DNA from: a virus
Taxonomy: Duplodnaviria; Caudoviricetes
Length of the DNA stretch: 64,000 nucleotides
Strand: one strand, 5' to 3'
IMG/VR virus record: IMGVR_UViG_3300027969_000040
Positions 37,450 to 49,174 of this stretch are shown piece by piece. Within the stretch, counting starts at the first letter, position 1. Each line of letters begins with the position of its first letter. Made by a program: the position numbers and the translations under genes. The notes under the pieces are model-generated. The model was not told the origin of the DNA. It saw nothing but the letters and a program-made list of their open reading frames with translations, and did not search any database.

Positions 37450-40400
37450 TATTCTTGATCTCGCCAACGTTTCTCTGCAGAGTCCCAATATCTTCCACCA
37501 ACTACATTTTTGGTTTCTGTTTTAGATTCTTCATATGGTTGCTCTTGTGTATCAGGCTCATTGGTAGCCGGTACAACTTGATCGTAGTCTTTCATGGTCA
37601 GAGTATTACCATTACTACTTAGATTTACTAGTTTTTCTGCCACATCGTGCAAATCTAAGTCAGTTTTTGCATCTTCTCTAGCAAATTCCATTACACGCAA
37701 TAGCATAGGAACATCCATGGTGACAGTATCAGTTGGGTTAGATGATGCTTCTTCGTCTAAGTTTATTAATTTTAGATAGTGGCGCTGTAGATATTCTTTA
37801 GCCCATTTTGCATCATCAAATAATGGACCAACACGTACACCTGAATGATTTAACACTTCAAATCTTTCGCCCTTGCTACCGTCCGGTCTCATGATATTAA
37901 CTTTACGTACACGCGGTCTGCCAGATTTAATTTCTTCGCCCTCAGGAATCATACCATTGCGGGCACTGTCTTCTAATTCTAAGTATGCAGCCTTGGCTTT
38001 TTGATAGTTGGTCTCGTCACCAATTTTATCGTAATGTTGCATCAGGTCGTGCAGTCGATCTGCTTCTTTAATATAATCGCGCATGCTCATTTTAGCAGGT
38101 TCGGCAGATTCGTTTTTATCTTGCCACCAGTAATTACCGTTAACAGGTTTTGATTTAGGCAACGATGGTGTTTTATTCAACATACGGCTACGTGCAGCTA
38201 GCGCCATTTTTTTTAATGTTTCTGGATCTTTGCCACTTAGATTAGGATGAGTGGAAGACTGGAAACGTTTAATCCATGTGTCTGGGGAATCGTTTGCAGT
38301 TAGTTTACCTTCGTCTATTTGTTGTGCTAGTATGCGTTCGACTTGTTTAATCCAGCTATTTAAATTATTCGATTCAATACCTTGTGCATTGTTTCCAACC
38401 ATGCCTGCAACAGAATTAATAGCATCACTTACACGATCAGACCCATATTTTAGTAAATCTGGTCGTTTTTCTGTAATGCCCTTAACAATGGCACTTATAA
38501 CAGAACTATTCGATACGCCCTCCGCCACACCTTGCTCTTTAACCAAACGTAATGCTGTAGCAGGTAGATTGTTGGCTTGCCCGCCATCGTCTAGGTCAAT
38601 GTAATAGGTTTTTGGGGCACCTTTAAAGGCACCGTGCTTAATTTCTCTAATCCAACCGGTCTTACCAGCGTGTTCGCCTTTGACAACTTTTACCTTCTTG
38701 GCTAGCCCCTTGCCTTCCGCCACACCTTGCTTGTCAATACTTCCCCGTATACCGCATTTAGCACAATGATATTGTGTTAGCGTTGGGTGTTCTTTTTTCT
38801 TTACAGGACCATGGCAATGTGGGCAGGTACCTGTGGCCATTGCCTTGACTTCTTTACTCATATCTTCTTCGGAGCCTTCCGCCACACCTTCATTAGGTTT
38901 ACAGTTGCGAACCTGGCCGCCATTCTTACCTTTCTTAGTACCTACTGCATGTTTGCCTGGCCAGCAACGAGTAAATCCGTTGCTATCTTTGGCACCTTTC
39001 TTAATCTCATTCAAGTTGCCGTGTGTTTGACACATGCCGCAGTCTTCACACACCATTTCCATCTCTACTGATTCGTTGTGTTTTTTCTTGCCAGCACAAT
39101 GTGCTCGTTGGCTGAACCCTTTGGGGTGACTACAGTTGATACTGTTCTTGTATTTTTGGCTCCACTCCTCTGCCACACCTTGTGCCGGTGCTTGAGGTTT
39201 AGATTGATTTTTTTGTACCCATTGCATTACTTGAGTTTTTAGTTGTAATGGAACTGTATCTTGTTTACCGTTTACAAAATCTACTACATCTATAGTTCTG
39301 TTACCAAATGGGCCTTCGCCAGCGGAGTTAGTGCCTACAATACCTTGTGCATTTTGTCCAGCCGTACCTAAGTCTGGATCAGACCCTTTTGCTAAAAATT
39401 TATCAAGTCCTAATGTACTAGCAGTATTAGGTGGCACCCAAGACATTGATGTAAAAGTTACATTGTCGTATGCTGTATGCCCGCCCAATCCTTCACTTCC
39501 TCTATAATCTGCTTTAATATAATTACCGTCGGCCATTTTGAAATAAACTGTGCGAGGTGCAAACATATCTAATTCATTCAATTGATCCTTTGCTACACTG
39601 TGCTCGCCGGTACCTATATAGTGATGGTCGTGTACTTTATAACCTTTTTTGCGATAGTGAGCAATGGCAGATTTAATTGCCTTATCACGATTGTCGCTAG
39701 TTACCTTCACAGTTTTTTGTATAGTTTCTTTACGTTTGCTAACCATTGCGTGATTAGGGTCTGTAACAGTTAAACTAATACGATGTACAGATTTTGTGCT
39801 TTCGTCAACTTGATCTCCGTTGCCAACTAATCTAATTAGATGCCCTTGTTTAAAATATGTTGGGTGATACATTACTACATTAAAGGTACTATCGTTGTTA
39901 TAGGAAATCTTTACATCACCTCCAGCAGCAACAATCTTACTTTTTATATCTTTTGTTGCTTGTGCATTTTTATTGGGCCCATACATAGCATTAGCCATTT
40001 GGTCTGCTAATTGTAATAGATATTGTTTCTCGTCTCCGCCACCTTCATCTGGTGCAAACTCTTTTAATTTTCTTTGAGCATCAATTTGTGCCAATTGCTT
40101 TCTAGCAGACTGATCTCCGGAGTGGGCGCGATCTATTAGCTTTGCCATGTCAGCTTTTAATTTGGCTATTTTATTATCGATTGAATTAATATTACCTTTG
40201 ACAACGTCATCTGGTACTGCGACTTTTGCACTGCCTGGGAAGTCTCTAAATTCGCCTTCGTTCATTACTCTGCTACTTAAATCGTTAATTTGAATTTCAA
40301 GATTTGCAATTTGTTTTTGATCTTTAACTTTAACTGGATATGGTTTTCCATTCCACTCAAACTGTTGCGCACCTTGTTTAGCGGCTGCAAGATGTGCTTT

Positions 40401-41159
40401 TGCAAAAGCCAATGCTTCCTCTGTTGTACCAAATACTTTACTGGCTAGCCATTTAAGAGTTTTGTAAGTTATTACTCCACCTAATACTGCCATTGCTCCT
40501 GTCAGCAATCCTGCACCTAGTGCCGGAGCAAATAAAGCAATACCCCCGCCAGAGCTTGCCATAGTAACACCAGCAGTGGAACCAGTTAATCCTGCCCCTA
40601 CACCAACCCCTAATGCTTTGTTTAACTCGGTGTCGTGCATAAACGAATCTGCATTTCTGAGTTTATTTCCTAGTTCACTTCCCGGAAATAATGCTTCGTT
40701 TACTTCAGACTCGTTCTTAACAAGTCCCATATCTTCAAGGTACTCAACTGCCTTTAATAAATTGGGTGTTGTTTTTTCTGTAGTCTTACCGTTATGTGTA
40801 ATTCTTAATACATTTGTATCGCCGTCGGTACTGATAGTAGCAGTAACTTCTGAATTATCTGGATCTATGTAACTTAATATTTCTTTAAATTTATCTTCTA
40901 TAGTTTCTTTTTCTTTTTTATCAGCGTAAGTTCCGTTTTTACCTCTGATTAAATTGTGTACTTTGCCTTCTTTGTCGGTTCTGGTCATTGCGGCAGGTTT
41001 AAGGAATGCAGCATCGTATGCAACAGCCGTTCCGAATTTCTTTTCCAATGTGGAAAGGTCGTATGCTTTTGCTTCTTTGTCTTCGGTTTGAATTGTTTTA
41101 TTTTTAATCTGACCTAAAAATTCACGATCGTCATCGCTGAACATATCTAATACATACAT
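37449..41159 (-). CDS. Large modular internal head protein / polyprotein (1236 aa)
   Basis: Mosaic of short modules separated by recurring (V/L/I)-x-E sites (VNE, MNE, LKE, LNE, four GVAE); contains Cys-rich, Zn-ribbon and KOW-like modules. Confidence 0.6.
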   Translation of the reverse strand: MYVLDMFSDDDREFLGQIKNKTIQTEDKEAKAYDLSTLEKKFGTAVAYDAAFLKPAAMTRTDKEGKVHNLIRGKNGTYADKKEKETIEDKFKEILSYIDPDNSEVTATISTDGDTNVLRITHNGKTTEKTTPNLLKAVEYLEDMGLVKNESEVNEALFPGSELGNKLRNADSFMHDTELNKALGVGVGAGLTGSTAGVTMASSGGGIALFAPALGAGLLTGAMAVLGGVITYKTLKWLASKVFGTTEEALAFAKAHLAAAKQGAQQFEWNGKPYPVKVKDQKQIANLEIQINDLSSRVMNEGEFRDFPGSAKVAVPDDVVKGNINSIDNKIAKLKADMAKLIDRAHSGDQSARKQLAQIDAQRKLKEFAPDEGGGDEKQYLLQLADQMANAMYGPNKNAQATKDIKSKIVAAGGDVKISYNNDSTFNVVMYHPTYFKQGHLIRLVGNGDQVDESTKSVHRISLTVTDPNHAMVSKRKETIQKTVKVTSDNRDKAIKSAIAHYRKKGYKVHDHHYIGTGEHSVAKDQLNELDMFAPRTVYFKMADGNYIKADYRGSEGLGGHTAYDNVTFTSMSWVPPNTASTLGLDKFLAKGSDPDLGTAGQNAQGIVGTNSAGEGPFGNRTIDVVDFVNGKQDTVPLQLKTQVMQWVQKNQSKPQAPAQGVAEEWSQKYKNSINCSHPKGFSQRAHCAGKKKHNESVEMEMVCEDCGMCQTHGNLNEIKKGAKDSNGFTRCWPGKHAVGTKKGKNGGQVRNCKPNEGVAEGSEEDMSKEVKAMATGTCPHCHGPVKKKEHPTLTQYHCAKCGIRGSIDKQGVAEGKGLAKKVKVVKGEHAGKTGWIREIKHGAFKGAPKTYYIDLDDGGQANNLPATALRLVKEQGVAEGVSNSSVISAIVKGITEKRPDLLKYGSDRVSDAINSVAGMVGNNAQGIESNNLNSWIKQVERILAQQIDEGKLTANDSPDTWIKRFQSSTHPNLSGKDPETLKKMALAARSRMLNKTPSLPKSKPVNGNYWWQDKNESAEPAKMSMRDYIKEADRLHDLMQHYDKIGDETNYQKAKAAYLELEDSARNGMIPEGEEIKSGRPRVRKVNIMRPDGSKGERFEVLNHSGVRVGPLFDDAKWAKEYLQRHYLKLINLDEEASSNPTDTVTMDVPMLLRVMEFAREDAKTDLDLHDVAEKLVNLSSNGNTLTMKDYDQVVPATNEPDTQEQPYEESKTETKNVVGGRYWDSAEKRWRDQE
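38521..39181 (-). repeat. Four dispersed copies of about 15-bp AAGGTGTGGC[GA]GA encoding [QE]GVAE[GE]
   Basis: Copies near 38521, 38713, 38876 and 39168, with unrelated spacers. Confidence 0.85.
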
Positions 41160-41160
41160 A

Positions 41161-41700
41161 TTAACCTCCCTGCCCTGACATATTTTGTTTTACTGTGTTT
41201 GTAAGTGTCCCCAATTGGCTTGACGATAAGCCAGCATTGGCTAACATCTGTGCCATTGCTGCTAATCCTTGTGGATTAATTGGCGGTGTTGGTTTTGGTG
41301 TTTGCCCCGGCGTAGAACCAACTGTTGTTGTTTTTGGTGCAGTGTTGGCCGCAGTAGTAGGCGGTGTAGTCTGACCAGCAGATGTAGTTGGTGCAGCTTG
41401 CCCTGCAGATGCAGACGGTGTAGTTTGAGCTTGCCCTGCAGATTGCCCTACAGTTCCGACTACACCTACTTCGTTTATACTTCTTACATATTTTTGGTCT
41501 TTAAAATATTCAACCAATGAATCAACACTATCGTGATAATCGATTCCTGATTCAAGCAAATCATTTACAGATTGTTTAATGAAATGTCTTTCATTCTCAG
41601 TTATACCGCCGTATACATTTTTATCTTCAACGATATCGTTTACACGTACCAGGCCTTCTACAATCCTGTTTAATAGTGTTGATGAAATAGAGTCAATCAT
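41161..41700 (-). CDS. Hypothetical internal head protein with Ala/Thr/Pro-rich tail
   Basis: 179 aa; IVE, ITE and INE sites; low-complexity C-terminal half. Confidence 0.55.
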   Translation of the reverse strand: MIDSISSTLLNRIVEGLVRVNDIVEDKNVYGGITENERHFIKQSVNDLLESGIDYHDSVDSLVEYFKDQKYVRSINEVGVVGTVGQSAGQAQTTPSASAGQAAPTTSAGQTTPPTTAANTAPKTTTVGSTPGQTPKPTPPINPQGLAAMAQMLANAGLSSSQLGTLTNTVKQNMSGQGG

Positions 41701-42659
41701 TTGCTGGTCCTTGACTTGGGACGGCCACCAAACAATTCACCTGCTTGTTGTCCACCCATATTAGTTGCCATACCACCACTTGAACTAGCACCTGCCGTTG
41801 ATTCAAATTCTGCATCTGGCGCATCTACATCGCCTATTTTACTAGAGTTCATTGTGATGCCTTTATATTTAATTTTTAGATTAGAATACATGTTACCACG
41901 TTGTCTTAAAAAATTACTTAACCATTTGTCGGCCTGTATAATAACTTGTTTTGGTGCGCCTCCCCAATTATATTTTTCTATCATTGGTGTTAGATCAAAT
42001 TCCTTATACTCACCACCCATTAGCATAGATGCCATTAATTTATTTGGATCGGTCTGATCGGCTGCTTTTGCTAACCCAGGTGCTGCTGCTACTGCTGCGG
42101 CTGCACCAGCGCGCCCAAGGAATCCTCTACGGTTCATATCAGCTTCCGTCACACTTTGCTGACCTAATACAGGACCAACTTGAATACCTTTGCTTGCTAG
42201 TAAATCTTTAATACGACCGGCTCTGTTACTAGCGGCTTCATACTCTTGCTGTGTTTTGGCATTTTTTACAGCCATGACTGCTTGTTGGTATTGTTGTTTC
42301 CACTCATTAGCACCGGGTGTTTTGATAGAGGAGCCGTCTGGATAATCGCCTTCCTCTACAATGCCAAGAGTATTCATGTTCTCGTCGGCAACTTTGTTCT
42401 CCATATGAGAACCTAATTCGTATTCTAACCATTCTTTTACATTACGTAAGTAATCATTCGCCAAAGTTATCTTTTCGCTTGCCCACCCCGGTATACCATC
42501 TTCCTCGCTGATTTTTTTAAGCATTCTATGCAGTTCCATGGCATTTGATGCAGAATGATAACATTCTTCTCTGGCCATTTGTACTTCGTGGTCCATATGC
42601 ATAGACTCAGCTGCTTGGACAATTGGGTGTTTTTCGGGTATAAAATCTATAGGTTTCAT
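41697..42659 (-). CDS. Modular internal head protein containing an internal Tat signal peptide
   Basis: DHEVQMA...WASEKITLANDYL module; VTE-AD-MNRRGFLGRAGAAAAVAAAPGLAKA; upstream TAAATA at 42682-42687. Confidence 0.65.
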   Translation of the reverse strand: MKPIDFIPEKHPIVQAAESMHMDHEVQMAREECYHSASNAMELHRMLKKISEEDGIPGWASEKITLANDYLRNVKEWLEYELGSHMENKVADENMNTLGIVEEGDYPDGSSIKTPGANEWKQQYQQAVMAVKNAKTQQEYEAASNRAGRIKDLLASKGIQVGPVLGQQSVTEADMNRRGFLGRAGAAAAVAAAPGLAKAADQTDPNKLMASMLMGGEYKEFDLTPMIEKYNWGGAPKQVIIQADKWLSNFLRQRGNMYSNLKIKYKGITMNSSKIGDVDAPDAEFESTAGASSSGGMATNMGGQQAGELFGGRPKSRTSK

Positions 42660-42696
42660 AGTAGTAAATTGGTTAGTAATGTATTTATGTTACAGT

Positions 42697-44295
42697 TTAA
42701 TACGCACTGTTGGACTTGATGATAACTTGATCAATGGGTAAACTAGCCACTGAGTTATTAAGGCTAGTCCAGGACTCGATTCCTGTATTCTTATTAGGGG
42801 TAAACAATACTTTATCGTTTTTAACTTCACCAGTAGCTATTCCTACTGGTTTACCTTTCCACCAAACAACATCGCCGCTTTTAACACGCTCTGCTTTATT
42901 CAAAAATTGGTCTGGTGGTGTAATGCCTTCTGTTACTTTATTTTCTAACTTATTAAAGAATATTACAATTGCTTGTTTTACATCTTCGGCAGCATATAAT
43001 CTATCATTAGTGATAGCCAATCGTTTAGAAAACAGATCTCCGTCTTCTTTACTTTTAGCATATTCCTTTGCTGCAAGACTAGAAAAATGTGCTCGCGCTG
43101 CATATAGTCTACGTAATTCCATCCATTCTTCTTCGTCTGGCGTGGGTCTTGGATCGTGTTGCAGCAAAGACAATCGCTTCATTCTTTCTGCATATTTTAC
43201 CAACTCCACAGCTACTTTTTCTGCAAGGTGACCTTCGTATGGTTTTTCTTGTATAGGGGTATAGTCATTGACATCGTCCCAATTTGGATCTACAAGATCG
43301 CCTTCGGGATCGAGCTCGGAGCGTGACAAGTATTGAACAAGTTTTTTTGCTAGATTGCTGTTGGTATCAGACATTTTTAAAAAGGCAAGGCGTCCTGCAT
43401 TCAGCCCCCTTTCTGCAAATAATCGTGCTAACTCTACTAATTCCCTAGTATCTTTTTCAACTTCAGGATCTGACTCGGGGTCTAAGAACGTTCTTGTAAA
43501 TTTTATAATTTCGCTGGCATATTTATAAGGTCTGTAGTCTGTTACACGTTGTTTAAAATCTTCTTCTAAGTTAGTTGCAGCGTCAACAACTGGGTCATAT
43601 GGTATTTTATTAAAAATATGTACCAACTCAGGGGTTGCTTGCCCGTATAATTGTGTTAAGAATTCTTTACTGGCATTTTCATCTTCCCGCACCATATTCC
43701 ATAACATCCTGCATTCAGTGCCATGGCTAGCATCGTATGTCTTTCCATTGATATTAACCTGTGCTGGTTTTTCTGCTACAACTATTACATAGCTATGTTT
43801 GTCTGCGGTAGTTGATTCTGCAATGGATTTAAATGTTAAGAATGGTTTAAGATCACCAACATTTTTACCAGGCGGTATTCTGGACTTCCTGGGTGACCCG
43901 TCTTTTTTCGGTTTGGGTGTAAATTGTGTATAGACACTATCAACTTCTAGTCGTTGTTTATCTGGTTCGCCTACAGCAAAAATGGCTATTGTTTTACTAG
44001 GATCAAATCCTAATATTCTTGCATAATCTTGAATTTCGTAAGGTTGATTGGCTTCAACAATACGATCGTTATGTACACCTGCGGCATGCATTAGCTGTAC
44101 TTTATCAGTAAAGCTAAATGGACTTTTAGGTAGATCTACATTATTACTAGTACCAATGAATACATTATCACGACCAAATTTTCTTTGCAGTTCGTTAAAA
44201 ACCGCACTATGCCCTTTATGAAACGGCTGGAACCTTCCTGGGTAAATAACCACAATGTGGGTTGCTTGGGATTCAAAAAGGTCAAATACAAACAT
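42697..44295 (-). CDS. Cytidylyltransferase-like (HxGH) nucleotidyltransferase with C-terminal extension
   Basis: YPGRFQPFHKGH, PFSFTDK, SHGTECR; MFVFDLFE leader; upstream TAAATA at 44313-44318. Confidence 0.8.
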   Translation of the reverse strand: MFVFDLFESQATHIVVIYPGRFQPFHKGHSAVFNELQRKFGRDNVFIGTSNNVDLPKSPFSFTDKVQLMHAAGVHNDRIVEANQPYEIQDYARILGFDPSKTIAIFAVGEPDKQRLEVDSVYTQFTPKPKKDGSPRKSRIPPGKNVGDLKPFLTFKSIAESTTADKHSYVIVVAEKPAQVNINGKTYDASHGTECRMLWNMVREDENASKEFLTQLYGQATPELVHIFNKIPYDPVVDAATNLEEDFKQRVTDYRPYKYASEIIKFTRTFLDPESDPEVEKDTRELVELARLFAERGLNAGRLAFLKMSDTNSNLAKKLVQYLSRSELDPEGDLVDPNWDDVNDYTPIQEKPYEGHLAEKVAVELVKYAERMKRLSLLQHDPRPTPDEEEWMELRRLYAARAHFSSLAAKEYAKSKEDGDLFSKRLAITNDRLYAAEDVKQAIVIFFNKLENKVTEGITPPDQFLNKAERVKSGDVVWWKGKPVGIATGEVKNDKVLFTPNKNTGIESWTSLNNSVASLPIDQVIIKSNSAY

Positions 44296-44391: not shown

Positions 44392-45246
44392 TTATTCTGC
44401 TGGTGTTGGTGCTTTTGGCGCTTTAGAAAAGTCCGGCATTTGACTCAAATCACCTTTGTATTCATAGTGCCCGATGTGATTTAACAAGACTTTGTTATGT
44501 GCCCAAATTTCGCCGCCAATAGCTTGCCAGCGTCGGCAGAACAGCCAATCTTCGCTAAGATAGTGGCCTTTTGCATCAATTGCTGTGTCAAATATAGCAT
44601 ACATCATTGGTTCGTATTGCTTGCCTAACCCTACATCATCTACATACTTGGTTTCTGGATGTGCAGCAATTAGTTGCTCATATACGCTACGTTTAAAGAT
44701 TAAAAATCCAGTTCCCATAGTATCTACTGTAAAGATATCGCCCTGTATTTTAGTCTGCGGCAACAAGTTAATCACATAGTTACTAGGAATGCTTTTCTTA
44801 GGATACAATCCGCCGATGACATCTTTTTCATAAACAAGCATTTGAAATATTGATTCTGCATCAAATCTGATATCTGCATCAATGAACATAAAATGTGTAG
44901 CCTTATCATTAGTCATCATTTTAGCCATTAAATTATTACGGCCACGAGTAATTAAACTCTCGTTAACCATAGTATCTAAACTCCAATTGAGTCCTGTCCG
45001 TTGAGCCATTAATATGAAACGTAATAAACTGGTCATGGTAGGTTCGCTACACATACCGCCGTAGCATGGAATTCCAATATGCAAATGAAGTTTACTAAAA
45101 TCGTACGGAGTGCCATTTTGTTGCTTCTCTTGTACTGCTTCACTTTGTTTTTTCATTATATCGGCAATTTTTTGTACAACGTCTGTAGCACTTTCACCGG
45201 GCAAATTAATTGGATTGCTCGATTCTGATTGATTATTATTTTCCAT
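44392..45246 (-). CDS. GT-A fold glycosyltransferase (family 2-like)
   Basis: IGIPCYGG, ESLITRGRN, HFMFIDADI (DxD), GTGF, LSEDW.FC, HIG. Confidence 0.85.
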   Translation of the reverse strand: MENNNQSESSNPINLPGESATDVVQKIADIMKKQSEAVQEKQQNGTPYDFSKLHLHIGIPCYGGMCSEPTMTSLLRFILMAQRTGLNWSLDTMVNESLITRGRNNLMAKMMTNDKATHFMFIDADIRFDAESIFQMLVYEKDVIGGLYPKKSIPSNYVINLLPQTKIQGDIFTVDTMGTGFLIFKRSVYEQLIAAHPETKYVDDVGLGKQYEPMMYAIFDTAIDAKGHYLSEDWLFCRRWQAIGGEIWAHNKVLLNHIGHYEYKGDLSQMPDFSKAPKAPTPAE

Positions 45247-45256
45247 TTTTTTCTTT

Positions 45257-45982
45257 CTATTGATTTTTCTGATTGATTATAGTTTGATTTACTGACCCAA
45301 TTAAGGATGGTGATAACATTTTGAGTATATCTAACATCTTAATATCATTAAGATATATGAAGCCGCCTTGAAAATATTTATATCTATCCGATAGCCTCTC
45401 CAATATAAACTTTGATATTTTTATCTCTCCATCTAAATTTTTTATATAATTTACTAGTGCATGTCGATCCTCAAGTTTGATGAAACCTTCTTTTAAGCGT
45501 ACCTTATACGGATGATCACTTTCTTTTTTAGTGATAATAAAACCTTGATCTAACAATTTTTTGTCCGAATCAAATTCTAACAACGAAACCGAACTCAATC
45601 TAGTTTTATGCTCGCTTAAAATTTCATTAGCTACATTATACAAGTAAGATTCTGAATCTGCAAATACAGTGAAAGAATAATAACTAATTCTAAATTTTAC
45701 TTTAACATTGGTTGGTGTTGTATAATATTTGTAAAAGTCTTCTAGTGTTTTTAAACTTGCATTTTGATTTTTGTATCTGACAAATCTGTCTGTGTTTCTA
45801 TAATTAAAAGCCTTCACAGTTGATGGTAGTTTATCAGCAGTTTTACAATTAATCAAACATCTTGCACCTTGTAAATTATAAGTTAAACTGTAACAAAACT
45901 CGTTAAAAAATTTCTTCTTAGTATAAAGAAATCGCAAGTCTCGATTTAGTTTACTCCACTCTGATAAATCCATTTTTGTCAA
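45257..45982 (-). CDS. Hypothetical protein
   Basis: 241 aa ORF overlapping the clpA end. Confidence 0.55.
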   Translation of the reverse strand: MTKMDLSEWSKLNRDLRFLYTKKKFFNEFCYSLTYNLQGARCLINCKTADKLPSTVKAFNYRNTDRFVRYKNQNASLKTLEDFYKYYTTPTNVKVKFRISYYSFTVFADSESYLYNVANEILSEHKTRLSSVSLLEFDSDKKLLDQGFIITKKESDHPYKVRLKEGFIKLEDRHALVNYIKNLDGEIKISKFILERLSDRYKYFQGGFIYLNDIKMLDILKMLSPSLIGSVNQTIINQKNQ

Positions 45983-48254
45983 CTGATGGTACCCCTTCGA
46001 TCAATAGCTGCATGTTATAGGCAATTACAGTAAAAGTCAAATCTTTTTCCTGGCAATCTACATTAATAATAGATCCGTTTTCCAAATTCTCAAACAATAT
46101 TTTTTTACTAATAGGTACTTTAATCAAATCGTTAATTACACGATTCAATGGCCTTGCGCCCATTCTCTTATCAAACCCTTTTTCAACTAGTAAGTCAACG
46201 GCACGTTCAGTTAGACGCAATTTAATTTGTCTATCGGATAGTAAATCATTGATTTCTGACATAAATTTAGCGACAATCTTTTTCATGCTAAACTGATCTA
46301 ATGTTTTAAACTTACATATAGCATCAAGTCTATTTCGAAACTCGGGTTTAAAAAATTCCTTAACTGCCTTATCGTCCTCACCTGTGCGCTCTAACGATTG
46401 ACCAAATCCAATGGTATTGCGTTCGTTATCGGCAGCGCCTAGATTACTAGTCATAATTAAAATAGAGTTACGTGCATCGGCTTTTTTACCATTGCTACCA
46501 GTAATAAATCCTTCATCCATAAATTGCAACAAGATATTTGTTACATCAGGATGAGCTTTTTCAATCTCATCTAATAGGATAATTGAGTTTGGATTTTGTT
46601 CTAAAGCACTAATTAATAATCCACTGCCAGCTGCTGAATCTTCATATCCAACATACCCAGGAGGTGCACCGATTAACTTAGCCATGCTATGTTTTTCTTG
46701 GTACTCACTCATATCGTAGCGAACCATCTTCATTGACAAATTGGTTGCAAGTAACTTAGCTAATTCAGTTTTTCCAGTACCAGTTGGCCCCAAGAATAAA
46801 AAGCTACCAATTGGTTTGTTAATTGATTTAATACCTGCTTTACTTACGAATATTCGCTCTAACACAGAAGTTACGGCATCCTCTTGACCGTACAGCCCTT
46901 GGTTTATATTGATTTCTAAATTAACAAGGCTATTAGTATTATCACTGCCAATTTGATCAACTGGTATCTTAGTAGCGCGACTTAGTGCTTCTACAATCTG
47001 CGATTTGCCTAATACAAAGTCTGAATCTTGCTTGATTTGTATTTTTTGTTTAGCACATGCAGTATCCATTAAGTCTATTGCTTTGTCTGGCAGCTTTTTG
47101 TCAGGTTGATATCTAATGCTATAATCAACGGCGGCATCAATTGATTCATCTGAAATTTTAATGTTATGGAATTTTTCAAAATTTAATCTTATACCTTTAA
47201 GTATAAGTTTCGAATCACTTGCACTAGGTTCGTCTACAGTTAATCGTTGAAATCTACGCATCAATGCTCGATCTTTTTCGAAGCTTTGTACATATTCATC
47301 CCATGTAGTAGATGCGATAACTTTAATCTTGCCCTTAGTTAATGCAGGTTTAATCATGTTACTAAAGTCGACCGAGCTAGAAGAGCCACCGCCAGCGCCA
47401 CGCATCTGATGTGCCTCGTCGATGAATAGTATAGTTTTTTCTTTCATTATCAATGCTTTGATAACATTCTGAAATTTTTCTTCAAACTCGCCTCTATACT
47501 TACTTCCAGCTAATAAGCTACCTATATCTAAGTTATACACAGTATATGACTTTAGATATTCTGGTACATTACCGTCTACTATATTTTTAGCAAGTCCTTC
47601 TGCTAACATTGTTTTACCAACGCCCGGATCACCAACTAATAGGATATTGGCTTTATTACGTTTAGCCAATATATGAGACATTTCTGTTAGTTCAAACTCT
47701 CGTCCAATAATAGGATCAAGTTCACCTTTCTTGGCCAAGTTGTTCAGATTTGTACAAAACTCATCTAACATTTCTTCGGCACGCTCTGCATTTATATTTG
47801 GAGAATTTAAATCCGACTCGGTATTAAATTTTTTGTATAATTCCATTAGGGTTGCACGATCAATTCCGTACTTTAACATAAAATAGAATGCATAGCTATT
47901 TGATTCCATTGAAATGCTTAATACCAAGTCAATGATTTTAATACGGTTAGATCCGTGAAACAACACTTGTGTTAGTGCTCTATTAAATACACGTTCTAAC
48001 GTTTGTGTTTTTCTTGGAGTATGCGATTCTTCGACTACTAAATGTGTTTGTGCATTTAAATAATGGCTTAGTTCACCCACCAGGCCGTTGACATCAAAAT
48101 TTAATTTTATCAATATCTTCTTAAAAGGACTATATTGAAAAATAGCCAATGCTAGATGTTCTAAAGTTACATATTCATGTTTAAGCGACTTAGCAGCCTC
48201 GCTGGCTTTAAGTATAATTTCTTCAATCTCTGCATTTGGTCTCATTGACGACAT
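45951..48254 (-). CDS. clpA: ATP-dependent Clp protease ATP-binding subunit (ClpA-like)
   Basis: N-domain HEYVTLEH, two AAA modules (GDPGVGKT/LFIDEAH and GPTGTGKT/LLDEIEK), PEFRNRLD, MGARPL; no ClpB M-domain. Confidence 0.9.
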   Translation of the reverse strand: MSSMRPNAEIEEIILKASEAAKSLKHEYVTLEHLALAIFQYSPFKKILIKLNFDVNGLVGELSHYLNAQTHLVVEESHTPRKTQTLERVFNRALTQVLFHGSNRIKIIDLVLSISMESNSYAFYFMLKYGIDRATLMELYKKFNTESDLNSPNINAERAEEMLDEFCTNLNNLAKKGELDPIIGREFELTEMSHILAKRNKANILLVGDPGVGKTMLAEGLAKNIVDGNVPEYLKSYTVYNLDIGSLLAGSKYRGEFEEKFQNVIKALIMKEKTILFIDEAHQMRGAGGGSSSSVDFSNMIKPALTKGKIKVIASTTWDEYVQSFEKDRALMRRFQRLTVDEPSASDSKLILKGIRLNFEKFHNIKISDESIDAAVDYSIRYQPDKKLPDKAIDLMDTACAKQKIQIKQDSDFVLGKSQIVEALSRATKIPVDQIGSDNTNSLVNLEININQGLYGQEDAVTSVLERIFVSKAGIKSINKPIGSFLFLGPTGTGKTELAKLLATNLSMKMVRYDMSEYQEKHSMAKLIGAPPGYVGYEDSAAGSGLLISALEQNPNSIILLDEIEKAHPDVTNILLQFMDEGFITGSNGKKADARNSILIMTSNLGAADNERNTIGFGQSLERTGEDDKAVKEFFKPEFRNRLDAICKFKTLDQFSMKKIVAKFMSEINDLLSDRQIKLRLTERAVDLLVEKGFDKRMGARPLNRVINDLIKVPISKKILFENLENGSIINVDCQEKDLTFTVIAYNMQLLIEGVPSVDKNGFIRVE

Positions 48255-48264
48255 TACAGTTCCT

Positions 48265-49101
48265 TTATGTTAATAAATTTTCTAATGCTTTATGCTGATC
48301 CGATGTAATAGTCGACGGAACAGTTAGTGAAATTTCAACATGCAGATCGCCACGTATAGGTTGATTTACATCCCATAACCCTTGAGATGGAATTCTAAAT
48401 TTAGAATTATTTTGTGTACCCGGCGGGATTCTAATTTCAAATTGTGTATGATCTAACCCTGACACCATTGCCTTTGTTCCTACTACAGCATCGATGCAAT
48501 TAACACTTATTGTTTTTATTAGATTCAACCCGGCTATTACAAATTCAGGATGCTGTCTTATTCGTAAATCAACTAGTAAGTCTCCAGGCGGCAAGTTAGA
48601 ATGTGAAGTATCACCTTTTCCTTGGTATCTAATTTGCATACCAGTTTGAACTCCCCTGGGGATTTCAATCTCTACAGTTTTATTTGATCCATTTGAATTT
48701 CGGACATTAATATGATGCGATTGAGTGTTAAGTGTTGATTCTAAATCTAGTTCAATTCCTACCCTTAGGTCTGCATTTTTAGCAGGTTGCCCGTGATGTC
48801 TGAAATTAAATCCTCCTGCAAATTGCCGGAATAGATCATCAATACCACCACCGCCACCACCAAAACTAAAGTGATGAAAATTACCACCGCCACCACCTTG
48901 CCCAAACATTTTTTGTTGTTCCCATTGGGCACGTTTTTGTGGATCGGATAGTGTTGAGTATGCTTCCTGTATCTCTTGGAATTTATTTTGATCACCACCC
49001 CGGTCTGGATGATGCTGCATAGCCAACTTTTTATACGCTTTCTTAATCTCGTCATCGCTCGCGTTAGCGTTGACACCTAAAATATTAAAATAATCAGTCA
49101 T
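48265..49101 (-). CDS. DnaJ/CbpA-like co-chaperone (no Zn finger)
   Basis: J domain with HPD, G/F-rich linker, C-terminal DnaJ domain (GDL, IPPGTQ). Confidence 0.9.
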   Translation of the reverse strand: MTDYFNILGVNANASDDEIKKAYKKLAMQHHPDRGGDQNKFQEIQEAYSTLSDPQKRAQWEQQKMFGQGGGGGNFHHFSFGGGGGGIDDLFRQFAGGFNFRHHGQPAKNADLRVGIELDLESTLNTQSHHINVRNSNGSNKTVEIEIPRGVQTGMQIRYQGKGDTSHSNLPPGDLLVDLRIRQHPEFVIAGLNLIKTISVNCIDAVVGTKAMVSGLDHTQFEIRIPPGTQNNSKFRIPSQGLWDVNQPIRGDLHVEISLTVPSTITSDQHKALENLLT

Positions 49102-49174
49102 AGTTATATAGTACAAATAAAAAAAGGTACAGCAGTTATAATACTATACCTTTGAGGAAATGTCAATATATTTA

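Follow-up and report, generated by a model that had tools for sequence, protein, structure and literature searches.

In a 64,000-nucleotide stretch of an uncultured freshwater jumbo phage (IMG/VR record IMGVR_UViG_3300027969_000040; this whole stretch is hereafter the window), we found that a modular open reading frame (ORF) of 320 amino acids, P0001, carries a twin-arginine (Tat) signal peptide (MNRRGFLGRAGAAAAVAAAPGLAKA) not at its N-terminus but in its interior, at residues 175-199. The observation of a buried signal is real and clearly non-random, and, judged by its sequence features and its codons, the element is a genuine, selectively maintained Tat signal peptide. Its distribution further indicates that the signal and the domain of about 90 residues behind it are a mobile cassette, carried by modular proteins of lake jumbo phages that are uncultured and related to T4-type phages. 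We suggest that a proteolytic cut in the prohead would expose the signal and that the Tat system of a host would then export the domain. This is, by inference, the best single explanation of our data, to which we give tentative credence, somewhat short of an even chance, and beside which three rivals stand.

The buried Tat signal and its conservation

The first-pass annotation of this DNA had described a Tat-like stretch at residues 175-199, with an RRxFL motif, an Ala-rich hydrophobic region (h-region) and an AxA signal-peptidase site, and we found it as described (nt 42137..42063). The signal is preceded by GQQSVTE-AD and followed by ADQTDPNKL. Its n-region, N-R-R-G-F-L-G(R), and that of its homologues, S-R-R-G-F-L-K, agree with the Tat consensus (S/T)-R-R-x-F-L-K, which bears out the earlier label of a "textbook RRxFL"; the Lys expected after FL is absent from the window allele, which has G-R in place of K-G. 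Tat h-regions are moderately hydrophobic, uncharged and about 12-20 residues long, and the c-region that follows has AxA, often with a basic residue. Both features are present in P0001: its h-region (AGAAAAVAAAPGLA) comprises 14 uncharged, Ala/Gly-rich residues with a mean Kyte-Doolittle value of 1.3, and A-K-A comes next. Across alleles this site reads AKA, AHA, ARA or AQA, so that position -2 holds K, H, R or Q.

A TatFind-style regular expression (RR-x-[FGAVML]-[LITMVF], at least 10 uncharged residues, then AxA) gave a single match across all six translated frames of the window, compared with 0.015 matches expected from nucleotide shuffles and 0.007 from amino-acid shuffles of the window ORFs. 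When scored against profile models, the window signal was borderline, reaching 13.2 bits with the Pfam model TAT_signal (PF10518; cut-off 22.7) and 16.8 bits with TIGR01409 (cut-off 16.7). Fragments from two other alleles, P0002 and P0003, exceeded both cut-offs (29.5 and 29.2 bits for PF10518), and a further relative, P0007, was borderline for PF10518, with 23.7 bits as a fragment and 22.3 bits as a whole protein.

To gather further copies, we used protein searches together with a degenerate DNA pattern for MSRRGFLKGAGA over IMG/VR and JGI metagenome contigs, which yielded nine further alleles, and we assessed these with codon alignments and Nei-Gojobori counts. Among the nine non-window copies, the segment D-MSRRGFLKGAGA contained no amino-acid change at all, at proportions of synonymous differences (pS) that rose to 0.84 and were thus near-saturated; for the whole signal, the ratio of nonsynonymous to synonymous proportions (pN/pS) was about 0.05-0.35. 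The window allele has a mosaic structure: relative to L010 (8325-9224), its signal gave a pS of 0.52 and a pN of 0.11, and the adjoining mature domain a pS of only 0.02. In three other lake samples, likewise, contigs follow the window sequence as far as 42083, inside the h-region, and then continue with an L010-type signal. The divergent signal of the window still has RR-x-FL, an h-region and AKA. Because no amino acid of the n-region has changed despite deep synonymous divergence, we conclude from these codon comparisons that purifying selection acts on the signal, and strongly on its RR n-region. The objection foreseen in the first-pass annotation, that RR might not be conserved in homologues, does not apply, as RR is kept wherever the cassette occurs.

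These results bear on one of the rivals, namely that the stretch was left over from a captured gene start, or is a flexible Ala-rich spacer, and is neither exposed nor exported. Such an origin would sit well with the score of the window copy below the Pfam cut-off, with the fact that most homologous domains lack the signal (see below) and with the free shuffling of modules in this family. It is highly improbable, however, given the strong purifying selection on the RR n-region, the conservation of AxA with a basic residue at -2, and the retention of every Tat feature by the divergent window allele.

The cassette within a family of modular proteins

In all copies gathered, the signal precedes the same domain, DPNKL, which occurs in two subtypes, and lies within a protein of one modular family. 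It begins at residue 175 of 320 in P0001 and at residues 11 to about 450 in relatives, never at a true N-terminus. We found no free-standing gene with the signal at its true N-terminus, only two short signal-less homologues; P0123, for example, is a free-standing version of 110 amino acids without the signal. In several alleles a linker, EEQGVAE/G or EEQGVAE/N (here and below a slash marks a proposed cut), follows the DPNKL domain, and in several relatives 300-500 amino acids of charged or DNA-binding-type modules lie behind the cassette. A ParB-N-like module (DG(N/H)HRF) stands upstream of the cassette in P0007 (residues 140-272) and downstream of it in L026 (6860-7372), with 38% identity between the two (E 2e-21).

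The AF2 model of the DPNKL domain, with a core pLDDT of about 88, found no significant fold match in the PDB (best Foldseek E-value 0.41; best VIA Z 5.7) or in the ESM Atlas. Neither relatives nor bacterial donors of the domain were found in 185,579 prokaryote species genomes. The DNA pattern of the n-region matched no bacterial gene in the metagenome collection, and its single match among prokaryote genomes was in an unrelated metagenome-assembled genome of the Rubrobacteraceae.

The residues directly ahead of the signal are of a constant type. The first-pass annotation had assigned SVTE-AD to hydrophobic-x-Glu sites, and every context that we checked indeed has x-x-E/D or E/AD at this position. 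The nine upstream contexts are VTE/AD in the window, VAE/D (twice, behind different modules), VEE/D, MEE/D (twice), TDE/D, IAE/D and, in L032, MRATEFVTE/D; all apart from that of the window have the form x-x-E/D-M. Position P1 is Glu in nine of nine contexts, and P3 is V, I or M in eight of nine, against a background frequency of 0.195 (P ~1.6e-5, or 1.4e-3 with related contexts merged to six). A search of homologous phage proteins for the E-site plus RRxFL, as the annotation had proposed, thus found both kept together in all contexts. In L032, a leader resembling the capsid-targeting sequence (CTS) of T4 is fused straight to the signal, as MRATEFVTE/D-MSRRGFL. A signal of another type occupies a similar position in P0174 (351 amino acids), where an internal Sec-like signal at residues ~105-140, read as NEDWKSALAGGALAASMALGGAGGAHA/QD or WKSALAGGALAASMALGGAGGAHA/QD and containing no Met, lies directly after LNE/D-E-LNE/D, ahead of a Pro/Ala-rich spacer and a beta-rich domain. 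This protein hints that Sec-type signals may be used likewise.

An exhaustive profile search returned 1181 representative relatives of the ORF, nearly all of which match one piece alone: residues 1-85 (almost always at the relative's own N-terminus), residues 101-173 or residues 199-290. A Pfam and PHROGs scan of the whole ORF returned no family. The proteins of the family consist of dozens of small modules, placed in any order and linked by Q-G-V-A-E-[GDNE]; 130 of 248 proteins contain such linkers in strict form, 213 in all. The QGVAE linker is kept even at the DNA level (CAAGGTGTGGCGGAAGG; window 38520-39179 and 42144-42155, minus strand), in codons that are rare for this genome of 38% GC, and the linkers of relatives use the same rare codons. 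Linker DNA may provide micro-homology for the shuffling of modules, besides or instead of encoding a cut site. The three syntenic alleles of the ORF (P0001, P0002 and P0003) differ by whole modules, with breakpoints exactly at linkers: the junctions read GIVEE/G...SVTE/AD in the window, GIVEE/G...GVAE/D in P0002 and GIVEE/D in P0003, the middle module being swapped for another in P0002 and missing from P0003.

The N-termini of these proteins are also alike. We found [LIVFM]-x-E within residues 4-14 of 203 of 246 family proteins, with the consensus MK(T/P)TDFI(K/P)E, as in MKTTDFIKE, and variants that include MRFTEFISE and MKANEFITE. The T4 CTS is MKTYQEFIAE (PMC8442874), and it is removed by the protease gp21, which cuts after L/I-X-E (PMC8442874, PMC9026906). 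From this comparison, the family looks like polyprotein versions of the T4 internal proteins, with putative packaging into the head. The C-terminal tails are likewise common to the family, reading GGMA...(S/E)LFGG and then a Lys-rich end; they could represent a second, C-terminal processing element or a DNA-binding element. In the searchable literature we found no paper on GVAEG linkers, on a QGVAEG-linked family, on such a Tat cassette, or on injected or virion-delivered phage Tat substrates.

Proposed exposure of the signal and its alternatives

How could a signal in the middle of a protein be put to use? In the explanation that we favor, the polyprotein, made late in infection, would enter the prohead, where a gp21-type prohead protease would cleave after Glu172 (V-T-E/A-D) and so create a new N-terminus two residues ahead of MNRRGFL. 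The freed pre-protein, of about 16 kDa, would be recognized by a host Tat translocase once it had reached a cytoplasm, most simply that of the next cell upon ejection; signal peptidase I would then trim it after AKA, and the small folded domain would remain in the periplasm, where it might take part in exclusion, counter defences or control lysis. We infer each of these steps, from packaging and cleavage through ejection and export to a role in the periplasm. The most complete version of this scheme holds that a dormant Tat pre-protein is packed in the head, freed by maturation and exported by the Tat system and signal peptidase of the next host after ejection, to serve as an envelope effector before phage genes are expressed; we consider it possible but doubtful.

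Unmasking would account jointly for four observations: the invariable hydrophobic-x-E/D ahead of the signal, the fusion of leader and signal in L032, the linker behind the domain in several alleles, and the CTS-like leaders. In addition, since the ParB-N-like module is found on either side of the cassette, only separate release would give each module a consistent location. The short, weakly hydrophobic h-region and the conserved AxA point to cleavage of the signal, rather than to anchoring of the kind known from class V Tat substrates.

As to the site of the cut, we would tentatively place it in the head, with the reserve expressed at the outset, and consider the cytoplasm of the producing cell a distinctly unlikely site. 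In that variant, a dedicated protease would cut the linkers, or the cut would come once fragments had left the proheads. Tat export would follow before that infection had ended, perhaps to time lysis or to exclude further phages, with nothing delivered by the virion. The positional evidence is the same for both sites, and the six-residue QGVAEG linker is more specific than gp21 sites; late periplasmic phage proteins are also known, such as T4 RI with its cleavable signal, as cited in PMC13673990. The CTS-like leaders, on 203 of 246 proteins, nevertheless point to head targeting, and no candidate cytoplasmic protease was found beside the genes, which are flanked instead by a cytidylyltransferase-like fusion protein and by chaperones of the ClpB and DnaJ types.

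The first-pass annotation had taken it as established that a Tat signal must lie close to an N-terminus to function. That premise is incorrect: class IV and class V substrates, such as the Streptomyces Rieske protein and FecR, carry internal signals that serve as uncleaved anchors (2026 review, PMC13673990). Internal Tat signals being known, unmasking is therefore not logically required, and the phage signal might act in place in the uncut, late-made protein. TatBC would bind it, the upstream modules would stay in the cytoplasm, and the rest would cross the membrane and be freed by signal peptidase, in a manner like that of FecR but with cleavage. Such a mode would draw on the established function of internal Tat signals behind a folded cytoplasmic domain (PMC13673990), would agree with the conservation of the signal and with the late-type promoter box, and would need no protease to be assumed. 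The known class IV and V signals, however, are uncleaved membrane anchors, whereas here the h-region is short and Ala/Gly-rich and AxA is conserved. Moreover, the 300-500 residues of charged or DNA-binding-type modules behind the cassette, the ParB-N-like module included, would all have to be exported, and the occurrence of the ParB-N-like module before the cassette elsewhere would leave modules in inconsistent locations. The invariable hydrophobic-x-E/D ahead of the signal would also go unexplained. On balance, we judge action in place to be unlikely.

Alternatively, Met175 could be a second translation start, such that the late mRNA would give rise both to the 320-residue protein and to a Tat pre-protein of 146 residues. 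The first-pass annotation had named this option on account of a weak GGAAG; this sequence is present, 5 nt upstream of the ATG of Met175, but strong local mRNA structure disfavors its use. The 53-nt segment centred on the Met has a folding energy of -8 to -14 kcal/mol, compared with a median of -3.4 for true starts in the window, 0-4% of which are as structured, and a median of -7.7 kcal/mol for internal ATGs. An internal start could draw on the retention of the Met in ten of ten alleles and on the anti-Shine-Dalgarno pairing of the upstream 17 nt, which in seven of nine contexts matches that of many true starts (for example, GGAGG plus 5 nt in L013); nested starts are also common in phages, and T4 gp21 has one (PMC9026906). 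Yet the resemblance to a Shine-Dalgarno sequence is a by-product of Glu/Asp codons, with a spacer of 2 nt in most contexts, and the whole n-region is invariant, so the retained Met adds no information. Furthermore, the leader of L032 has its own start 10 codons upstream, no free-standing version was found among the copies gathered, and the signal of P0174 has no Met, so that a new start cannot explain it. We therefore regard an internal start as improbable.

Several observations weigh against unmasking in the head. In our first sample, 29 of 35 DPNKL domains had no signal, so that this domain can do without the periplasm; likewise, at ten of ten IMG/VR loci found via the DPNKL domain, the signal is absent and the linker runs directly into DPNKL. 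The linkers may serve recombination rather than cleavage, because QGVAEG is far more conserved, even as DNA, than the loose L/I-x-E specificity requires. One of the contexts, T-D-E/D, is a poor gp21-type site, and the leader of L032, at 10 residues, would not mask the signal, with the result that export could compete with packaging. Internal Tat signals of class V substrates such as FecR function without unmasking (PMC13673990). We sought a Peptidase_S77 (T4 gp21-type) prohead protease in five IMG/VR fragments with family genes, which are 12-27% complete, and found none; a search upstream by exact-protein matching led no further than an 11-kb fibre gene located on another contig. Finally, megablast and tblastn searches against 50,697 phage records revealed no cultured relatives of the ORF.

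Phage setting, neighbouring genes and known counterparts

The phage contig is 260 kb long, and the stretch represented by the window occurs in lake and river metagenomes of 14 studies. The window encodes a family-B DNA polymerase (PolB), a ClpB-like ATPase and a cytidylyltransferase-like fusion protein. By PolB, the closest cultured phages are Sinorhizobium phage Phosso (51%), Agrobacterium phage Atu_ph07 (45%) and Rak2-like phages (42%). Both Phosso and Atu_ph07 have a Peptidase_S77 above the Pfam cut-off, and a 184-kb IMG/VR record contains an S77 protease together with distant family modules, there with the leader MRLQELVE.

The start of the ORF has no Shine-Dalgarno sequence; upstream of it lies an ATAAATA box that resembles a T4 late promoter (Table 1). 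This motif is depleted 2.6-fold in the window (13 copies, against an expectation of 34 +/- 6), and roughly half of these sites stand 10-55 nt ahead of ORF starts in the right orientation, including that of a neighbouring 532-residue gene (sites at 42682, 44313, 49169, 50082, 55291 and 6055). This pattern fits a T4-type late promoter of the phage, which it probably represents. Parts of the ORF also occur in contigs of a lake metatranscriptome library; transcript starts are not visible in such contigs, and DNA carry-over is possible.

Table 1. Features of the modular ORF P0001 and its promoter-like box (positions in the window).
Feature	Position	Strand	Basis
Modular ORF P0001, 320 amino acids	41697..42659, stop codon included	(-)	ORF translation
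Leader MKPIDFIPE, residues 1-9, T4-CTS-like, ends I-P-E	42633..42659	(-)	census of family N-termini
N-module, residues 10-103, helical hairpin, ends in linker variant GIVEE	42351..42632	(-)	N-terminal in hundreds of relatives; allele indel boundary
Middle module, residues 104-172 (GDYPDGSSIK...), ends QQSVTE, a variant of QGVAE	42144..42350	(-)	recurs in many other arrangements
Ala173-Asp174, proposed P1'-P2' of a cut after Glu172	42138..42143	(-)	nine-context comparison
Tat-type signal peptide, residues 175-199	42063..42137	(-)	regular expression, profile models, codon comparison
RR of signal	42126-42131	(-)	
AKA signal-peptidase site, basic residue at -2	42063-42071	(-)	
Passenger DPNKL domain, residues 200-288, predicted beta-beta-alpha-alpha-beta-beta	41796..42062	(-)	alignment A1, AF2 model
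C-terminal tail, residues 289-320, GGMATNMGG..ELFGG..K-rich	41700..41795	(-)	common to many family proteins
ATAAATA, T4-late-promoter-like box, 22 nt upstream of ORF start	42682..42688	(-)	motif census of window

The 532-residue neighbour (42697-44295, minus strand) combines a cytidylyltransferase-like domain with family modules and begins with the leader MFVFDLFE/S; in P0058, P0068 and P0069, the same cytidylyltransferase-type enzyme is fused directly to a signal-less DPNKL domain. The giant neighbouring polyprotein, an ORF of 1236 amino acids, contains a Gly/Ala-rich, membrane-like stretch (ALGVGVGAGLTG...LLTGAMAVLGGVITY; ~40410-40600, minus strand), and a similar stretch occurs in ORF 297-1406 of L120, which comes from an IMG/VR record with an S77 protease of its own. 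A ClpB-like disaggregase (767 amino acids; window 44392-49116) adjoins the polyprotein genes, and in the relatives L006, L010 and L013 a DnaJ-like protein is found there too. These are possibly chaperones that unfold or refold packaged or ejected proteins.

Like the class IV and V Tat substrates, the phage proteins carry their twin-arginine signal deep within the chain, with a cytoplasmic part ahead of it (PMC13673990). In contrast to those uncleaved anchors of cellular proteins, the phage signal combines a short h-region with a conserved signal-peptidase site, follows a protease-type site, and is viral. With the T4 internal proteins (IPI-III and Alt), which bear the CTS and are processed by gp21, the family shares a short N-terminal leader, M-K-x-x-[DE]-F-I-x-E, proposed Glu-specific cut sites with a hydrophobic P3, a hypervariable locus and probable late expression, in a phage lineage with T4-type PolB and with S77 proteases in relatives. 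The T4 proteins, however, are single, small and cut once, whereas here we find long arrays of shuffled modules with a six-residue linker conserved as DNA; one module is an export signal, and packaging is putative.

Two-step targeting of a related kind occurs in the chloroplast, where the bipartite transit peptides of lumen proteins lose their N-terminal targeting part in a first cut that leaves a Tat signal at the new N-terminus. That case differs in that it concerns import into a eukaryotic organelle, a short transit peptide in place of folded modules, and no virion. The polyvalent proteins of phages and conjugative elements, reportedly described by Iyer et al. in 2017, are said to be large multi-domain proteins that accompany the DNA on delivery and are believed to be split into individual effectors. 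They differ from the QGVAEG-linked family in modules, linker and leader, and we know of no export signal described for them.

Should the signal act internally, without unmasking, the recently defined class V of Tat substrates would come to include viral proteins and cleaved signals. Our findings also offer a concrete, testable handle on the very large family of shuffled, QGVAEG-linked polyproteins of lake jumbo phages, which comprises more than 1000 representative clusters, none of them annotated. If the signal does become exposed through proteolysis, the phage would provide the first viral example of two-step targeting, to the capsid and then to the periplasm. Such exposure would also represent a new route by which injected phage proteins could reach the cell envelope, with a bearing on superinfection exclusion, on periplasmic defences against DNA entry and on lysis control.

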